Below, piece by piece: positions 57,867 to 63,879 of a stretch of DNA of 64,000 bases. The notes under the pieces were generated by a model, which saw only the letters and a list, made by a program, of their open reading frames with translations, made no database searches and was not told where the DNA came from. Both the position numbers and the translations under genes were made by a program. The DNA comes from Enterococcus phage VRE9_2, in the sequence record PP680568.1; one strand, written 5' to 3'. Position 1 is the first letter of the stretch. Each line of letters opens with the position of its first letter.

Positions 57867-57922
57867 GATAAATTCCACCTTTTTAAAATTTTGTTAGTAA
57901 GTTGTTCCCTTACTACTCTTTA

Positions 57923-57951
57923 AGTATAAACGATTTTCAATTATTTTGCAA
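57923..57951 (-). promoter_or_regulatory. promoter TTGCAA-17-TATACT for 57477..57866
   Basis: minus strand reads ttgcaaaataattgaaaatcgtttatact. Confidence 0.5.
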
Positions 57952-58030
57952 GTCTTTTTTTGCTTTATTAGAAAATTCTCATTTAAGCTTAAAGAGTAAC
58001 AAGTGAACTTCCCTCTTAAGTATACCATAC

Positions 58031-58155
58031 TTTTTTTAACTTTGCAAGTATAAAGTTTATTTATTTTTCAAAGAACTTTTTGCAATCTCTTTCCTTATCT
58101 CTAATACTATTATAATAAATTTGAAAAGAGATTGCAAGTATAAAGTTTTAAATAA
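58031..58155. repeat. two copies of TTGCAAGTATAAAGTTT (plus partial third at 57943); candidate operator sites
   Basis: aactttgcaagtataaagttt at 58033 and agattgcaagtataaagtttt at 58127. Confidence 0.5.
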
Positions 58156-58774
58156 TTTTATCAATCGTAATTTTTTTGATGAGTGTTTCAAGTGTTTGTT
58201 TTGTTGGTTCTACTAATAAGCGATAATCAGCATGTTTAAATAATCCGTAATCGCTCGCAGTATCTCCCCAAGCCTCTATATAACTATATTCATTTGTATT
58301 TATATTCCACTGAATGCAGTCATCTTTTTGTGATTCTGAAAACATACCGTTAACCTTTCCAGTGAAACAATCGTCAGCTTTTAAATATTCTGTCGCATGA
58401 TATGAACAACCTAAAAAGTTAGCTAAATGCTTAATTAGAAAATCGCTTGAGCCTGTAACAAGAACAACTTCAAAGCCTTGTAAAATTTTTTCTTTTAAAT
58501 CGTTTAAAGTTTCATACCAATTTTTTTCATCTTTCAAAAATTGAGAAACAAACTCTTTTGCGTGCATTTCTTTTTCTGTTTTTCCTGTTATCTCGTTACG
58601 ATAGTTTTCAGCAACGGCAACAATCAAACTTTCATTCTTAACATCTTTTTTCCATGCCTTATAAGAACCGTCATCTTTGATAATTCCTTTTTCAATTAAA
58701 AAACCCGCATGAGATAAAACAACGCTCTTTCTTGTAAGTGTTCCGTCTACATCTGTTAAAATTAAATTTTTCAT
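58148..58774 (-). CDS. HAD-superfamily phosphatase
   Basis: LILTDVDGTLT (DxDxT motif I). Confidence 0.65.
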   Translation of the reverse strand: MKNLILTDVDGTLTRKSVVLSHAGFLIEKGIIKDDGSYKAWKKDVKNESLIVAVAENYRNEITGKTEKEMHAKEFVSQFLKDEKNWYETLNDLKEKILQGFEVVLVTGSSDFLIKHLANFLGCSYHATEYLKADDCFTGKVNGMFSESQKDDCIQWNINTNEYSYIEAWGDTASDYGLFKHADYRLLVEPTKQTLETLIKKITIDKII

Positions 58775-58879
58775 TTCTTTTATCCTCCCTTTATCTTATA
58801 TACTTATTATAGGGGATAAACGATAAAAAGTAAAGCATTTTACACATTAAAATTATTAAAGTTTAATGAGAATTGTTTC

Positions 58880-59280
58880 TAATTTACACACAATTCGCCA
58901 GGCGTTATTTTATAATTAAATAACAGCTTTTCTTTGAACACATGTTATTTTATAAACTTGTAAGCGCTTACAAACTGCGTCAGATCAAGCTTTCAATAGA
59001 TTTTCAGAAATTTTCATTGTTGTTTCAATAACAAGCAAAAATTACATGTGAAATAATTCACAAACATAAAATAACACCCAAGAGGAGAAAAAATAACACA
59101 CTTTGACTTGTGCGCACATTCACATTCTCTTGCTCTCTTGGAATGAAAAGGCTGTGAAAGCTTGGTATAATAGGCTTTCTGATTGTGAAAAAATTCACAT
59201 GCACGGACTTTTGGGATATTAAAATAACATTAAAAAACAATTAAATAACAAGCCAAAAACTTGACAGGGATAAAATAACA
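58880..59280. repeat. iteron field: >10 copies of AAAATAACA / TGTTATTTT 9-mer in both orientations
   Basis: e.g. cgttattttataattaaataacag, tgttattttataaac, ataaaataacaccc...aaaaaataacacac, aaaataacattaaaaaacaattaaataacaagcc, ataaaataacacag. Confidence 0.6.
59247..59278 (+). promoter_or_regulatory. promoter TTGACA-17-TAAAAT directed into module B
   Basis: ttgacagggataaaataacacagtaaaat then GGCGCTCGCC hairpin. Confidence 0.45.
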
Positions 59281-59606
59281 CAGTAAAATGGCGCTCGCCA
59301 GCGAGCGGCCGAAAAATAACGTCCTCTATTTGTTATTTTATTCATTTCACAAACTTTAGTTTCAGGATTCTGTTATTTTATTTTTGAAAATCAGTTTTCA
59401 ATTTATGAAAATGAAAATGAAAGCTTGATACATCAAGGTTTTGGGAACCTCGCCCCGCAATGTTATTTTATCTTCTTCCTTTTGGACTGTTATTTTATTT
59501 TATACATTTCACAAACTTCACTTTTAAAATAACACGTATTTCTTTGTGAAATTTTTCACAAGTAAAATTAAAAAAAGATGAGAAAAATCTCATCTTTTAT
59601 TTTTAT
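59281..59606 (+). ncRNA. noncoding module B (paralog of module A): GC hairpin + iterons + terminator; candidate ~320-nt sRNA
   Basis: GCGCTCGCcagcGAGCGG hairpin then GCCGAAAAATAACG; ATCAAGGTTTTGGG..GCCCCGCAATGTTATTTTA parallels ATCAACGTTTTGGGGCGGTGTTATTTTA in A; terminator AAAGATGAGAaaaaTCTCATCTTTTATTTTT. Confidence 0.45.
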
Positions 59607-59762
59607 GATAATCACTAAATTTTTTTAGCTCTGCTGTGTTAATAATATATTCATTACATAAATCTAATAGAAAATCTTCAAAACTTTCTTTTTCATTTCC
59701 TCTTGTCTCCCAAAGTCTTTCTAATCTTTTATACATCTTTTTATTACTTAAAATAATCATTT
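59595..59762 (-). CDS. small hypothetical protein (55 aa)
   Basis: minus ORF MIILSNKKMYKRLERLWETRGNEKE...; TTGACA-17-TATACT promoter at 59792-59820. Confidence 0.35.
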
Positions 59763-59827
59763 AAATTCATTTCCTTTCCTTTACTATATATAGTATAACA
59801 TGAAAATTTTTTCGTGTCAACTATTAT

Positions 59828-60079
59828 TTAAAAAATATTTTCTAGGTCATAATCAACGCTATATTCAAAATCTGAATAGTCATTGATAACATCAACAAAT
59901 TCAAAAAATTCAAATACCATTTTTTCAGCTGATTCAGAATCTAAATATCCATTCATTATTTCATCAGTCATTTTTAATACTTTTTCAATTTTCCTAAGTA
60001 CTTCCATAAGTTTCACTTTGTCGTATGTTTCAATCAGAAAATTTTGTCCTGTAGGCATTTTTATAATTACATTTTCCAT
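59828..60079 (-). CDS. hypothetical acidic protein
   Basis: 83 aa; palindromic -35 promoter upstream. Confidence 0.45.
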   Translation of the reverse strand: MENVIIKMPTGQNFLIETYDKVKLMEVLRKIEKVLKMTDEIMNGYLDSESAEKMVFEFFEFVDVINDYSDFEYSVDYDLENIF

Positions 60080-62195: not shown

Positions 62196-62909
62196 CTTTT
62201 TCTTATTTAAATTTTCTTCATTCACAATCCGCCACGCTTGAGGGTTAATAGAATAAGCATGGATAGGAATTTCTTTTTCTTGGTTCAATAGAGAATGTAA
62301 AATTTTTGTTTCGTCTATGCTATCTTGCAAAGCAGTATGCTCTTCAATGTAATTTGTATCATTAAACAAAAATTTATAGGTTGCTTCTGCGCCGGTTTGA
62401 TAGTTCCCTTTTTCTGTTAAAAGATTGTGAGTTTTTGCAAACTCTTTATATTCTGGTGTATTTAATACAGTATAAGCGGCTACGGGATAAATATCAATTA
62501 AAAAGAAATTATCAAAGAAATCAAAATCTTTTCCCGAAAAGAAGAAATGAGTTTTTGCAATTACACGAGTATCAAAGCCCAAGTTATAGGCGCCAACGTA
62601 AGCAACGTTATATTTTTTACAATCTTTTTTAAGTTGCCCGATAATGTTTGCCCACTTGCTAACAATAATTCTTTTTTCAAGTAATTTTGTAAAATATACT
62701 TTTCCATCAACTACATTTTCATCAATCAAGAAAGCACGTTTTTTATTCAATGCTTGAAATTTAAATTGTTCTACCATATAAGAACGTTCTACTAAAATAT
62801 TGCCTTGTTTATCTGAAATAGCCCAACCAATATCGAAAACTGATTGATAAGGCATTCCCTCGCCCTCTTTTGTCGTTTCAGTATCTAAAATCAAAAATGT
62901 TTCTTGCAT
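62190..62909 (-). CDS. DEDD-family 3'-5' exonuclease-like protein (paralog 2)
   Basis: FLILDTETT (DxE), YNLGFD; start at MQETFLIL after AAGGTGG; same MQETF start as the gene at 61331. Confidence 0.6.
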   Translation of the reverse strand: MQETFLILDTETTKEGEGMPYQSVFDIGWAISDKQGNILVERSYMVEQFKFQALNKKRAFLIDENVVDGKVYFTKLLEKRIIVSKWANIIGQLKKDCKKYNVAYVGAYNLGFDTRVIAKTHFFFSGKDFDFFDNFFLIDIYPVAAYTVLNTPEYKEFAKTHNLLTEKGNYQTGAEATYKFLFNDTNYIEEHTALQDSIDETKILHSLLNQEKEIPIHAYSINPQAWRIVNEENLNKKKS

Positions 62910-62957
62910 GTAATTTTCCACCTTTTCAATAAATTTATTTGTTCCTTAACTACTATT

Positions 62958-62992
62958 TAAGTATAACAAAAGGGCTTGAGCTTGTCAAGCCC
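62958..62992 (-). promoter_or_regulatory. promoter TTGACA-17-TATACT with palindromic -35 (AAAGGGCTTGACAAGCTCAAGCCCTTT)
   Basis: read on minus strand. Confidence 0.55.
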
Positions 62993-63002
62993 TTTTACTA
63001 AC

Positions 63003-63437
63003 TTATTTCAATTTGTAAGCTACTTTTTTATCCTTTACAACTTTTTCAAATTCTTCATTGTCTACTAATGGTTTCATGATTGCCGTTAATTTTTGAGGTG
63101 TAGCGCCAACAAGCCCAATCAATTCAGCAATTTCATTCAGTGTTAAGGCTGTTTCTGGTTCTAAGTCAAGAAATGCTTTTCGTACTTTATCCATGTTTTC
63201 AGCTTTTTCTTTTGCTGTTTTGCTTACGCCTTTTTTGCCACGTTTTGCCTTGTCTTGTTTTACTTGTTGCATGTGCATAGCTTCCAATTTTTCAGTTAAT
63301 TCTTCTGGTTGAAATTCTACTACAGATTTCATTTTATCTGTAATATTAGTTGGCACTTCAATTGCTAGGTCTTTCCATGCTTGTGCTAAAATAGTTGCGA
63401 CTTCCAATGCTTGTGCTTTTGTAATTTGTTTTTCCAT
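63003..63437 (-). CDS. small protein, TPxxL..KKYKVK-tail family
   Basis: MEKQITKAQALEVATILAQAWKDLAIEVP...TPQKLTAIMKPLVDNEEFEKVVKDKKVAYKLK. Confidence 0.55.
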   Translation of the reverse strand: MEKQITKAQALEVATILAQAWKDLAIEVPTNITDKMKSVVEFQPEELTEKLEAMHMQQVKQDKAKRGKKGVSKTAKEKAENMDKVRKAFLDLEPETALTLNEIAELIGLVGATPQKLTAIMKPLVDNEEFEKVVKDKKVAYKLK

Positions 63438-63489
63438 GATAAATTCCACCTTTTTAAAATATTTTTTTGTAACAATTTCTTATTACATT

Positions 63490-63525
63490 CTTAGTATAAA
63501 ACATTTTGATTTGTTTGTCAAGTGT
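63490..63525 (-). promoter_or_regulatory. promoter TTGACA-17-TATACT
   Basis: ttgacaaacaaatcaaaatgttttatact on minus strand. Confidence 0.55.
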
Positions 63526-63600
63526 TTTATACTAATTTCTAACAAGAAATTTTTTATTGCTTTCTTTATACTCTTATTATAGAGTATTGAGAAAGGCTTG

Positions 63601-63804
63601 TCAAGCCTTTTCCCAATTTTCTTTTAAGAAAGTAACAACGCTATAACTTGTAATAGTTGTTAAAGCAATAAGCAACAAGCTTTGAATAGAGAAGAAACCA
63701 GTGTACAAAATAGCTTGATAAGTGAAGTAGAACGGTACTAAAATACCTCCTGCAATTAAAATTCCTACAAAAACGATTAATAATACTAATTCTGATAATT
63801 TCAT
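63601..63804 (-). CDS. small two-TM membrane protein
   Basis: 67 aa; TTGACA-17-TATACT promoter at 63834-63866. Confidence 0.45.
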   Translation of the reverse strand: MKLSELVLLIVFVGILIAGGILVPFYFTYQAILYTGFFSIQSLLLIALTTITSYSVVTFLKENWEKA

Positions 63805-63879
63805 TTTAAAACTTCCTTTCCTTTTCTATATATTAAGTATATCATTGTTAAAATGGTTTGTCAATACTTTTGGCTAAAT

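Follow-up and report, generated by a model that had tools for sequence, protein, structure and literature searches.

Part of the genome of a large virulent Enterococcus phage is a variable array of single-gene cassettes, which we analyzed in a 64-kb stretch (the window) and which extends beyond the window end. The junctions between cassettes, about 40 bases each, quite probably have a dual nature: a host-type promoter as DNA and a 3′-end hairpin as RNA, at a point where cassettes are also exchanged. As DNA, a junction would drive the downstream gene from a near-consensus host sigma-A promoter. In RNA form, the same bases would fold into a hairpin of the upstream gene's transcript, where it may serve as a terminator or attenuator and as a protector of the 3′ end. 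Whole cassettes, with their own promoter and hairpin, would be deleted, inserted, or moved at short homologies that the junctions share. The junctions match the PeSLs (promoter-early stem-loops) of T4-like phages and the promoter-coupled terminators of bacteria. The cassette genes are mostly without known function, the exceptions being an exonuclease-like protein and a HAD hydrolase.

Promoters of the array

The initial annotation proposed near-consensus sigma-A-type promoters ahead of single small genes and suggested a motif search, the outcome of which is clear: the exact pattern TTGAC(A/T)-17-TATA(A/C)T occurs 19 times in the 64-kb window versus 0.04 expected from dinucleotide shuffles, every one of which contained at most one match. 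Ten of the 19 lie on the minus strand (as do all features described below) at 59792-63864 (59.8-63.9 kb), each ahead of a small gene except P63604, which has no gene behind it within the window; the related phage EF1 has a 57-aa ORF at the same place. The motif had been described as preceding every minus-strand gene from 57.9 to 63.9 kb, which is correct for nine of the 12 genes but not for the other three. The promoter of orf85 (P61721, 61693-61721) reads TTGATT-17-TATACT and has no hairpin, and that of the HAD-family hydrolase gene (58148-58774) reads TTTACT-17-TATAAT (58806-58834). Upstream of orf129 (57477-57866) are three tandem promoter-like units, TTGCAA-17-TATA(A/C)T (57923-58137), and no credible ORF was found in the window behind the first two of these. 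An extended -10 TG is often present in the junction promoters. Judged by their motifs, the array elements are presumably active promoters, and the array genes would probably be expressed early.

Hairpins around the -35 hexamer

In seven of the ten array promoters (63604, 62988, 62193, 61392, 60927, 60494, and 60140), the -35 hexamer is enclosed by a stem of 8-16 pairs. The three that have the exact motif without such a hairpin all read TTGACA-17-TATACT: P63864 (63836-63864, ahead of orf67), P63521 (63493-63521, ahead of orf144), and P59820 (59792-59820, ahead of orf56; no G+C hairpin). RNA folding energies of the seven range from -13.4 to -19.0 kcal/mol (z-scores of -3.7 to -6.2 versus shuffles), and those of promoters without a hairpin from 0 to -5.4 kcal/mol. 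Only eight of the 80 TTGACW sites of the window lie in a hairpin of this kind, and seven of the eight are the array promoters.

Given an A+T-rich genome and mutually related junctions, the palindromes might be thought a chance or neutral by-product of A/T-rich sequence near a repeated promoter. The probability of this is close to nil. Shuffling the flanks around an unchanged hexamer yields such a hairpin in about 0.3% of trials per site, which gives P ~3e-16 for at least seven of ten. Also, the composite pattern AAAGGGTTGAC...CCCTTT...TATAMT is found in 51 IMG/VR stretches versus two for a control with the 3′ arm reversed, both at loci that the real pattern had already hit. With the folding z-scores above and the compensatory changes and still-paired chimeric junctions described below, these tests refute a chance origin.

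The stems share a common anatomy. The 5′ arm consists of an A-tract, GGG, and the start of TTGAC, with AAAGGG or AAGG immediately upstream of TTGAC in all seven; the 3′ arm and a U-rich run, always 3′ of the G+C core, occupy the 17-base spacer, and loops are of 3-6 bases. The initial annotation placed the -35 box at the center of a perfect palindrome. The four palindromes that it quoted are all present in the window, and the -35 box does lie in a palindrome in the seven promoters listed, but the hexamer makes up the last part of the 5′ arm together with the loop rather than the center. The symmetry center lies 2.5-6 bases past the first T of the -35 box and shifts by 3.5 bases between junctions. 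Perfection likewise fails at 60140 (a T·G pair), and the stems at 63604 and 60140 extend via a bulge and more G·U pairs. The reported overlap of palindrome and stop codon is real and closer than claimed: the TGA inside TTGACA is itself the stop codon of orf67, orf239, orf135, and orf100. A TAA stop opens the stem for orf123 and orf85, and the TAA of orf144 sits three bases upstream of its stem.

In the direction of transcription, the cassette genes in the window begin with orf67 (63601-63804; small membrane-like protein, PHROG 36393, function unknown). It ends in junction 63604 (63576-63617), in which the hairpin (63586-63617, -14.5 kcal/mol; core AAAGGCTT gac AAGCCTTT, extension with one G·U and a bulge) overlaps TTGACA-17-TATAAT. 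Next is orf144 (63003-63437; PHROG 30233, function unknown), a paralogue of orf129, followed by junction 62988 (62960-63000), in which TTGACA-17-TATACT is overlapped by the hairpin AAAAGGGCTTGA caagc TCAAGCCCTTTT (-18.7 kcal/mol) and then UUUUGUU. The DEDD-type exonuclease-like orf239 (62190-62909; PHROG 20187) weakly matches a DNA polymerase exonuclease subunit and ends in junction 62193 (62165-62204; AAGAAAAAGAGTTG aca CAACTCTTTTTCTT, -15.4 kcal/mol, overlapping TTGACA-17-TATAAT). After orf82 (61890-62138) comes a stand-alone terminator (61873-61896). The orf85 cassette (gene at 61402-61659), which is found at another position in VRE9_4 and H1, ends in junction 61392 (61364-61404; TAAGTAAAAGGG ttgact CCCTTTTACTTA, -15.6 kcal/mol), where the -35 TTGACT is the hairpin loop and is followed by 17 bases and TATACT. 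Three genes of unknown function follow: orf135 (60924-61331; PHROG 20625), with junction 60927 (60899-60936; GGTAAAGGGTT gaca AACCCTTTACC, -17.8 kcal/mol, overlapping TTGACA-17-TATAAT); orf123 (60498-60869; PHROG 38179), with junction 60494 (60466-60500; TAAGGGTTGA cttt TCAACCCTTA, -13.4 kcal/mol, overlapping TTGACT-17-TATAAT); and orf100 (60137-60439; PHROG 31205), with junction 60140 (60112-60154), where a stem of 16 pairs, including three G·U and a bulge, overlaps TTGACA-17-TATAAT. Next is the orf83 cassette (59828-60079). The tightly packed part of the array ends with orf56 and its stand-alone terminator (59573-59760 in all; gene 59590-59760, terminator 59573-59598).

An RNA element of the upstream gene

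The palindrome had been suggested to form the 3′ end of the preceding gene, and comparison with relatives supports this in two ways. First, it travels with the upstream gene even where another gene lies downstream. Three different genes are found behind the orf85-family hairpin and likewise three behind the orf100-family hairpin, and the hairpin of junction 61392 lies 3′ of orf85 in three genomes independent of the next gene. Second, the stems vary by compensatory and sense-strand G·U changes. At junction 62193, 98.8% of cells pair across six genomes; two pairs are changed on both sides, and one G-C has become G-U. The covariation value observed there is reached by 28 of 500 shuffles, with counts that are small because the sample is only six closely related genomes. 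At junction 60927, an A-U pair is replaced by G-C in H1 and in an IMG/VR relative.

The non-Watson-Crick pairs in stems are almost all sense-strand G·U. In the predicted folds of 31 distinct junction sequences (a set that includes orthologues and is thus non-independent), 25 G·U pairs occur on the sense strand versus three on the antisense strand, and the sense strand is more stable in 20 sequences versus seven for the antisense strand (Wilcoxon P = 0.008). For junction 60140, folding energies are -19.0 kcal/mol on the sense strand versus -11.5 on the antisense strand. Additional junctions of relatives carry unrelated stems (ATAATCC, AATAAGCC, TAGGGGTT), and chimeric junctions retain stem pairing. 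Between junctions, it is the structure of the hairpin rather than its sequence that is conserved. Varying sequence with kept pairing, sense-strand G·U, and linkage to the upstream gene therefore indicate an RNA element belonging to the 3′ end of the upstream gene's transcript; as far as substitution patterns reveal it, selection is shown to act on the sense-strand RNA.

The same observations bear on the suggestion that the palindromes are operators, at which a dimeric phage or host regulator over the -35 box would switch all early promoters off or on together. This position is classical for a repressor, AAAGGG or AAGG adjoins TTGAC at all seven junctions, a small transcriptional repressor is annotated in the complete VRE9_4 genome, and a terminator palindrome doubling as a LexA site has been reported (Fletcher et al. 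2026; bioRxiv 10.64898/2026.08.19.745784). However, the half-sites differ between junctions (AAGGCTT, GGGCTTGA, AGAGTTG, AAAGGG) and differ again in relatives, whose stems are quite different; loop size varies, the symmetry center moves relative to the -35 box, and stems change by compensatory substitution instead of staying constant. A protein that reads double-stranded DNA would have no reason to favor G·T mismatches of one strand, and three of the ten strong promoters of the same array have no palindrome. Because hairpin sequence and symmetry center vary, a shared operator is improbable.

Probable termination at the junctions

By the d'Aubenton-Carafa rule, which was trained on E. coli (the phage host here is Enterococcus), only the hairpin at 62988 scores positive among the seven (d = 11.8), with 62193 borderline (-4.2). 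The other five (-21 to -35) are weak; their G+C core is short and they have three U. A score of 21.5 is reached by both stand-alone terminators of the array. The full-length hairpins consume the U-run in A:U pairs, leaving no U-tail.

There is a minor, though appreciable, chance that the hairpins are RNA elements that do not terminate transcription but allow read-through and act as 3′-exonuclease barriers or processing sites that set message stability. A model for such processing is provided by the RNase III sites in T7 early RNA. The signs of selection on sense-strand RNA fit this equally well, as do the five poor terminator scores, the missing U-tail past the full stem, and the strong stand-alone terminators at both ends of the packed array (61873-61896 and 59573-59598). 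Set against this, a near-consensus promoter for each gene would be needless if one long transcript were processed, the U-rich run invariably follows the G+C core, and stems of 8-16 pairs are shorter than a typical RNase III substrate. Further, promoter-coupled terminators that are weak alone do terminate once the coupled promoter is active (bioRxiv 10.64898/2026.08.19.745784).

A terminator or attenuator of the upstream transcript is, in our assessment, the most likely role of the hairpin. Transcription would end there, at predicted RNA 3′ ends that precede the next start site by about 10-18 bases. On their own, most hairpins would be weak terminators, and RNA polymerase on the overlapping strong promoter probably aids termination as a roadblock. 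In bacteria, including B. subtilis, a coupled promoter raises termination efficiency, and the roadblock by polymerase at the coupled promoter was shown experimentally (Fletcher et al. 2026).

Cassette gain, loss, and movement

Close matches in the phage collection were confined to five Enterococcus phages. The six related Enterococcus phage genomes share 92-94% DNA identity, and every one differs in cassette order or content. In the complete VRE9_4 genome, 11 of 14 hairpin-promoters lie within an array at 119.5-126.3 kb. The idea that the junctions are cassette exchange sites is upheld: whole cassettes distinguish the genomes from one another, and the crossovers can be read from chimeric junctions. 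The orf123 cassette was lost twice independently, by different crossovers, one inside AAGGGTTGAC (VRE9_3) and one inside TATAATAA(T/G)AATATA (an IMG/VR contig). A 55-aa gene in H1 has a direct repeat of the leader TAGAAAGTTAAGGA on both flanks. Of the two ends of the orf82 deletion in VRE9_3 and EF1, only one falls within a junction. AAAGGGTTGAC and a conserved -10/leader/ribosome-binding stretch recur in every junction, so that the junctions double as short homologies. Exact identity between different window junctions reaches 22 bases (mean 9.3, versus 7.0 in coding controls). From these sequences, recombination at the junctions would be by short homology or microhomology.

Single-gene cassettes that are bounded by imperfect palindromes and are gained, lost, and moved singly could also point to DNA recombination signals, that is, hairpins or cruciforms recognized by a site-specific recombinase in the manner of integron attC. 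We regard this as very unlikely, as the annotation of the complete VRE9_4 genome lists neither an integrase nor any other site-specific recombinase, crossovers fall at differing points (5′ arm/-35, -10, leader) and not at one fixed site, and each cassette has its own promoter. The general recombination functions annotated in VRE9_4 (a Sak4-like annealing protein and a Holliday junction resolvase) would suffice. The annotation also includes the phage's own sigma factor, a portal, and an 8-kb tape-measure gene.

Comparison with known systems

The host-takeover module of SPO1 and the pre-early/early regions of T5 contain many small early genes, (nearly) each with a near-consensus promoter and terminator. 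At the sequence level the phage here is unrelated to them, its only close matches in the phage collection being the five Enterococcus phages. Integron attC cassettes likewise form single-gene arrays with imperfect palindromes that fold as single strands, and are gained, lost, and reordered. However, they carry no promoter and depend for their movement on an integrase that acts at a fixed site, unlike the promoter-bearing cassettes here, with their variable crossover points and no annotated integrase (VRE9_4).

The initial annotation considered the design distinctive, but it has been described twice. In the promoter-coupled terminators of bacteria (bioRxiv 10.64898/2026.08.19.745784), measured in B. 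subtilis and predicted in S. aureus and S. pneumoniae among the Firmicutes, the terminator of one unit overlaps the promoter of the next tandem unit. As here, the -35 box coincides with stem-loop DNA, a T-tract lies just upstream of the -10, and an A-tract lies upstream. The RNA 3′ end precedes the next start by about 10 bases, similar to what is predicted here, and weak terminators are aided by polymerase on the coupled promoter, as is probable here. These elements are chromosomal, scattered over the genome, and tied to functionally related neighbors, whereas those of the phage form a dense serial array between unrelated genes without known function. A role in cassette exchange is absent from Fletcher et al. 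(2026).

The PeSLs (Arbiol et al. 2010, PMC2839356; Comeau et al. 2014, PMC4122927) have the same anatomy, genomic setting, and chimeric-junction evidence, and include a described subclass in which the stem-loop overlaps the -35 box (PMC2839356). Their stems contain G-T pairs, and numerous copies are grouped within a variable region whose genes lack known function. Between near relatives, flanked genes are inserted, deleted, or replaced, and chimeric elements mark the scars. Even the stem consensus of Vibrio phage nt-1/KVP40, A3-4G3-loop-C3T3-4, corresponds to AAAGGG...CCCTTT here (PMC2839356, PMC4122927). Experiments demonstrated promoter activity, terminator activity, and mini-circles for PeSLs, whereas both activities of the junctions here are predicted from sequence. 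Other differences are that a single geometric subclass (5′ arm and loop containing the -35) accounts for all seven elements here, that the TGA in TTGACA is the stop of the upstream gene in four of the seven, and that the phage is not T4-like and its host (Enterococcus) is Gram-positive. In the literature that could be searched, we found no report of PeSLs for any phage infecting a Gram-positive host, and within it these junctions are apparently the first such element in a Gram-positive-host phage.

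Genomic setting of the array

The promoter-hairpin junctions studied here (elements of ~40 bases between cassettes, each a host-type promoter overlapping the hairpin that ends the preceding gene) belong to a minus-strand array of small genes that is cut by the window end at 64000; relatives have 3–4 kb more of it. Five Enterococcus phages (VRE9_4, VRE9_3, EF1, EF5, and H1; 134–142 kb each) match the region at 92–94% DNA identity, of which EF1 and EF5 look like one genome, and one 134-kb IMG/VR contig also matches it. In the complete record of VRE9_4, a plus-strand structural module (portal gene, 8-kb tape-measure gene) is followed by a minus-strand replication module, a plus-strand block of nucleotide-metabolism, tRNA, and small genes, and then the minus-strand array at ~116–127 kb, after which a phage sigma factor gene is annotated. 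A Sak4-like annealing protein, a RecJ-like exonuclease, and a Holliday junction resolvase are annotated as well. A literature search found no description of the array for EF1, EF5, H1, or the VRE9 phages.

The cassette proteins fall into PHROGs of unknown function, and nine of the ten received no functional assignment from Pfam. An Rfam search over the window returned 17 tRNAs, all outside the array, and no matches within it. These tRNA genes cluster at 35475–44836 on the plus strand, compared with seven in the VRE9_4 annotation table for the matching stretch; the extra tRNAs and other indels offset the window by ~6.6 kb relative to VRE9_4. A two-gene module (a protein of ~130–144 aa plus a DEDD exonuclease-like protein of 239–252 aa) is present twice on the minus strand, at 56636–57866 and 62190–63437. 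Its copies have a similar leader ending AAAAAGGTGGAATTTATCATG, and their promoter/leader stretch is 78% identical. Beyond the five Enterococcus phages and a single IMG/VR contig, a search with the exonuclease-like protein returned only two distant matches (25–26% identity). One of the latter, at 25%, is Phass-1 (database locus L006, OQ749652), a 136-kb human-gut phage assigned to a clade with TAG as a sense codon (alternative genetic code) and the sole distant relative in the isolate-phage collection; the other, at 26%, is an unannotated 8.5-kb fecal contig.

Promoters of the array

The motif TTGACW-N17-TATAMT occurs at 19 sites in the window, versus 0.04 expected from dinucleotide shuffles, and 10 of the 19 lie on the minus strand between 59792 and 63864. 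Nine of these 10 have a start codon ~30–75 bases downstream with a good ribosome-binding site, and many carry an extended −10 TG. The initial annotation had placed the exact motif before each gene; the near-consensus promoter motifs are real, but three genes have weaker −35 boxes.

One hairpin-promoter, P63604 (promoters and junctions are named by the coordinate of the first −35 base), in the stretch 63545–63617 on the minus strand, lacks a downstream gene in the window and likewise in VRE9_4, VRE9_3, and H1, so that two strong promoters are predicted in tandem before orf144. In EF1, a 57-aa ORF lies behind it (L003 3120–3350).

Several other features were seen nearby. Three tandem TTGCAA-17-TATA(A/C)T promoter-like units lie upstream of orf129 (57923–58137, minus strand), two of them preceded by ACTTTATAC; because no credible ORF follows the first two units, these may be emptied cassettes or short RNA genes. 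The intergenic stretch at 61676–61858 is 98.4% identical to VRE9_4 (89–94% for the flanking genes), and within it a plus-strand TTGACA-17-TAAAAT with an extended −10 TG (61790–61818) may be an antisense or small-RNA promoter. Finally, 58850–59570 comprises ~720 noncoding bases between the orf56 terminator and the promoter of the HAD gene, conserved in all relatives. TGTTATTTTAT/ATAAAATAACA recurs there at least 12 times, with both orientations represented, and TGTGAAAnnnTTCACA palindromes lie at three positions (59047, 59184, and 59545). The block looks like an iteron-type origin or a regulator-binding array.

Hairpins enclose the −35 hexamer

At seven of the 10 array promoters (63604, 62988, 62193, 61392, 60927, 60494, and 60140), the −35 hexamer is enclosed in a hairpin of 8–16 pairs with a loop of 3–6 bases; the stems are AAAGGCTT, AAAAGGGCTTGA, AAAAAGAGTTG, GTAAAAGGG, GGTAAAGGGTT, TAAGGGTTGA, and AAAGGGTTG. 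RNA folding gives −13.4 to −19.0 kcal/mol (z-scores −3.7 to −6.2) for these seven, and 0 to −5.4 kcal/mol for the array promoters without a hairpin. Such a hairpin arises at ~0.3% of sites with shuffled flanks (P ~3e-16 for seven of 10), and the window's nine other exact promoters all lack a −35-enclosing hairpin. In VRE9_4, 11 of the 14 hairpin-promoters lie at 119.5–126.3 kb. Chance origin of the palindromes is ruled out by the folding z-scores, the shuffled flanks, and a reversed-arm control in IMG/VR (see below).

The palindromes had been called perfect, with the hexamer at the center. Hairpins are indeed present at seven of the 10 promoters, but one palindrome includes a T·G pair, and the hexamer consists of the end of the 5′ arm plus the loop rather than the center. 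The overlap with the preceding stop codon is genuine, and at four of the seven junctions the stop is the TGA of the −35 TTGACA itself (63601–63603, 62190–62192, 60924–60926, and 60137–60139). In those genes the hairpin's 5′ arm consequently dictates the final codons (tails such as EKG, VKG, KKS, and EKA before the stop), although four of seven is not significantly more than the one in three expected from reading frame alone.

A relaxed scan of the window found three more promoter-like sites touching a hairpin, in a second geometry with the −35 in the 3′ arm or beside its end (3463, minus strand; 34331 and 49051, plus strand). The same geometry occurs on the minus strand of VRE9_4 at 59267, 62511, and 70266. 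It is found in the replication and metabolism modules, for example as AAAGTCAAGC-aatta-GCTTGACTTT.

An RNA element of the upstream gene

The palindromes could in principle be operators for a dimeric regulator, as had been suggested, or structures that act in RNA. An operator should have conserved half-sites whose spacing and placement in the promoter are constant, and these were not found: within the window, stems and loop lengths vary and the symmetry center lies anywhere from +2.5 to +6 (a range of 3.5 bases), and the upstream junctions of relatives have stems unrelated to those of the window (GATAATCCT, AAATAAGCC, AATAGGGGTT, and GTTAGGGGTTG). Across junctions, pairing is conserved and stem sequence is not. 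Among orthologs of junction 62193, VRE9_4 has U-A in place of a G-C pair, H1 has G-C in place of an A-U pair, and G·U replaces the top G-C in both EF1 and H1, with 98.8% of cells pairing; at junction 60927, A-U becomes G-C in H1 and the IMG/VR contig. The mismatches are also strand-specific. Predicted folds of 31 distinct junction sequences include 25 G·U pairs on the sense strand versus three on the antisense strand, and the sense strand fold is the more stable in 20 versus seven cases (Wilcoxon P = 0.008, a generous value because the 31 sequences include orthologs). The variable stems, loops, and centers, together with these strand-specific mismatches, speak against the operator, which we reject as unlikely.

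The hairpin instead travels with the gene that precedes it, the gene whose probable terminator the initial annotation had seen in it. Genes of the orf85 family always carry TAAGTAAAAGGG-ttgact-CCCTTTTACTTA behind them, and three different genes come next: orf135 in the window, an orf83-family gene in VRE9_4, and an orf56-family gene in H1. A gene of the orf100 family keeps AAAGGGTTG-acaaa-CAGCCCTTT before three different genes. Because the predicted start site is downstream from the hairpin, the hairpin would be present in the transcript of the upstream gene only. Four lines of evidence point to an RNA structure and not a DNA site, and on present sequence comparisons the hairpin is a 3′-end element of the upstream gene's transcript.

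Probable termination and promoter coupling

Counted from the first base of the −35, the stem's G+C core ends after 9–16 bases, and what remains of the 17-base spacer is taken up by a U-rich run, an arrangement that predicts RNA 3′ ends ~10–18 bases upstream of the next start. The d'Aubenton-Carafa rule gives junction 62988 a positive score (d = 11.8) and junction 62193 a borderline one (−4.2). The remaining five are weak, at −21 to −35, and for them the rule did not confirm termination; the array's pair of stand-alone terminators score 21.5. A terminator consensus scan flagged three of the palindromes, in the opposite (plus) orientation only. The layout is that of the recently described promoter-coupled terminators of bacteria: the −35 lies in stem-loop DNA, a T-rich run is directly upstream of the −10, and the genes are in tandem, all those flanking junctions being on the minus strand. 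We infer that the hairpins terminate the upstream transcript. The main rival reading, that they only stabilize or process read-through RNA, we judge rather unlikely.

In bacterial promoter-coupled terminators, the −35 coincides with stem-loop DNA and the T-tract is just upstream of the −10, the 3′ end falls ~10 bases before the next start (by definition no more than 35 bases upstream of a mapped start on the same strand), and a weak terminator becomes more efficient when its coupled promoter is active, an effect of proximity seen both in vitro and in vivo, with a B. subtilis example included (bioRxiv 10.64898/2026.08.19.745784). Those authors interpret the increase as collision with promoter-bound polymerase (bioRxiv 10.64898/2026.08.19.745784). 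The effect offers a plausible reason why weak hairpins combined with very strong promoters could insulate cassettes. With seven variants of graded hairpin strength within 3.5 kb, the array would suit a test of the polymerase roadblock in a Firmicute, and the 40-base junctions could be compact insulating expression parts for low-G+C Gram-positive bacteria.

One could go further and view the overlap as a timing device besides a way of saving space, with junctions that make genes self-sufficient units movable between phages, although we regard this as a doubtful extension. On their own, five of the seven hairpins seem too weak for termination, and insulation would last only as long as the overlapping strong promoters are filled by host sigma-A polymerase, which blocks polymerase arriving from upstream. 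After the phage sigma factor (annotated in VRE9_4) or host shut-off had emptied the promoters, transcription would read through past the hairpins, and the array's many independent early units would give way to long read-through transcripts. The mobile unit would be promoter, leader, gene, and hairpin, transferred by short-homology recombination or as excised circles. 

Gain and loss of cassettes

Cassette orders (numbers denote families from ORF clustering) are 2-0-1-13-14-3-7-4-15-16 in the window, 2-0-1-13-25-3-7-4-14-15 in VRE9_4, 2-0-1-3-4-15 in VRE9_3, 2-29-0-1-3-7-4-16 in EF1, 2-0-1-13-32-25-3-7-4-33-14-16 in H1, and 2-0-1-13-25-3-4-15 in the IMG/VR contig, that is, six different orders among six genomes. 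Given the 92–94% DNA identity among these genomes, the differences are recent.

In VRE9_3, cassette 7 (orf123) was lost via a crossover inside AAGGGTTGAC, and the scar is a chimera that still pairs, its 5′ arm coming from one hairpin and its loop and 3′ arm from the following one. In the IMG/VR contig, the crossover that removed the same cassette lies within TATAATAA(T/G)AATATA, a stretch made up of the −10 box and the bases just downstream. From their breakpoints, the two losses are independent events at two sub-elements of the junction. A chimera with an orf100-type 5′ arm and an orf85-type loop and 3′ arm (AAAAGGG-ttgact-CCCTTTT) is present in VRE9_3 and EF1, and gene 33 of H1 has a direct repeat of the leader TAGAAAGTTAAGGA on both flanks. 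The earlier suggestion that module junctions serve as recombination points is thus borne out by the six orders and by the chimeric junctions at scars.

The junction consensus common to the array runs from AAAAGGGTTGACA through the −10 to AAGGAAAGGAATGAATTAAATG. Exact identity between window junctions comes in runs of no more than 22 bases (mean 9.3, versus 7.0 in coding controls), and since shared runs are only short, recombination would be by short homology. An integron-like array was considered and rejected, since the VRE9_4 annotation includes no integrase, the cassettes have promoters of their own, and crossover points vary. The comparisons among genomes give unusually clean evidence that selection acts at the RNA level and that cassettes are exchanged at the junctions, and this amounts to a base-resolution account of the gain and loss of genes of unknown function in phages studied against vancomycin-resistant Enterococcus (the VRE9 phages and H1).

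Comparison with known systems

The composite is not confined to these phages. The pattern AAAGGGTTGAC-N(1-9)-CCCTTT-N(2-10)-TATAMT was found in 51 IMG/VR stretches, with a 17- or 18-base spacer in 51 of 56 matches; the control with the 3′ arm backwards found two stretches, both within the real-pattern set. Several matches are jumbo-phage contigs of 345–378 kb that repeat GGGTTGAC-TTCG-GTCAGCCC-TTTTTGC-TATAAT. Here a promoter (18-base spacer) covers the full length of an RNA-type terminator hairpin, which has a UUCG tetraloop, a T·G wobble, and a U-run. Repeated AAAGGGTTGACTTCGGTCAGCCCTTTTTGCTATAAT (UUCG hairpin plus promoter) occurs at database loci L012, L026, L030, L035, L038, L044, L047, and L058. 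When composite-bearing contigs were compared with isolate phages by BLAST, only the 45–60-base junction motif matched, in the jumbo phages RaK2 and fHe-Yen9-03. Based on the IMG/VR and jumbo-phage matches, the design is widespread and probably convergent.

The design had been thought distinctive, but promoter-early stem-loops (PeSLs) and promoter-coupled terminators already show the same layout. PeSLs are composite early-promoter/stem-loop cassettes of the T4-like phages phi1/RB49, PST/T4, and nt-1/KVP40, found in variable regions and for the most part ahead of genes with no known function; overlap of the stem-loop can be with the −35 (a listed subclass) or the −10, stems contain G-T pairs, promoter and terminator activity has been demonstrated with reporters, chimeric elements and excised circles are documented, and the nt-1 stem consensus is A3-4G3-loop-C3T3-4 (PMC2839356, PMC4122927). 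The Enterococcus junctions match PeSLs in anatomy, setting, and evolutionary behavior. They have an intergenic, near-consensus sigma-70-type promoter (−35, ~17 bases, −10) and, in the seven hairpins, a stable stem-loop that overlaps it between the upstream stop codon and the downstream Shine-Dalgarno; many copies are clustered in a variable region among genes of unknown function; and relatives differ by element-bounded indels and replacements, with chimeric elements in VRE9_3, EF1, and the IMG/VR contig.

One difference is of lineage and not mechanism. PeSLs were defined in T4-like myoviruses of Gram-negative hosts, whereas the closest relatives here are Enterococcus phages of 134–142 kb, whose annotations include a long tape-measure gene and a phage sigma factor. 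Among the papers searched that mention PeSLs, none concerns a phage of a Gram-positive host. If true, the mobile-unit reading would carry the PeSL principle beyond T4-like phages, to those of Gram-positive hosts and to many uncultivated phages. As read from its sequence, with promoter activity, timing, and termination as predictions, the array is a PeSL-like series of promoter-coupled terminators in an Enterococcus phage, and a natural, densely repeated example of the latter. A promoter/stem-loop junction known from T4-like phages of Gram-negative hosts also organizes a variable region of this large Enterococcus phage, which is unrelated to them; its stem consensus (AAAGGG...CCCTTT) is nearly the same, which suggests that the composite junction design has arisen repeatedly.
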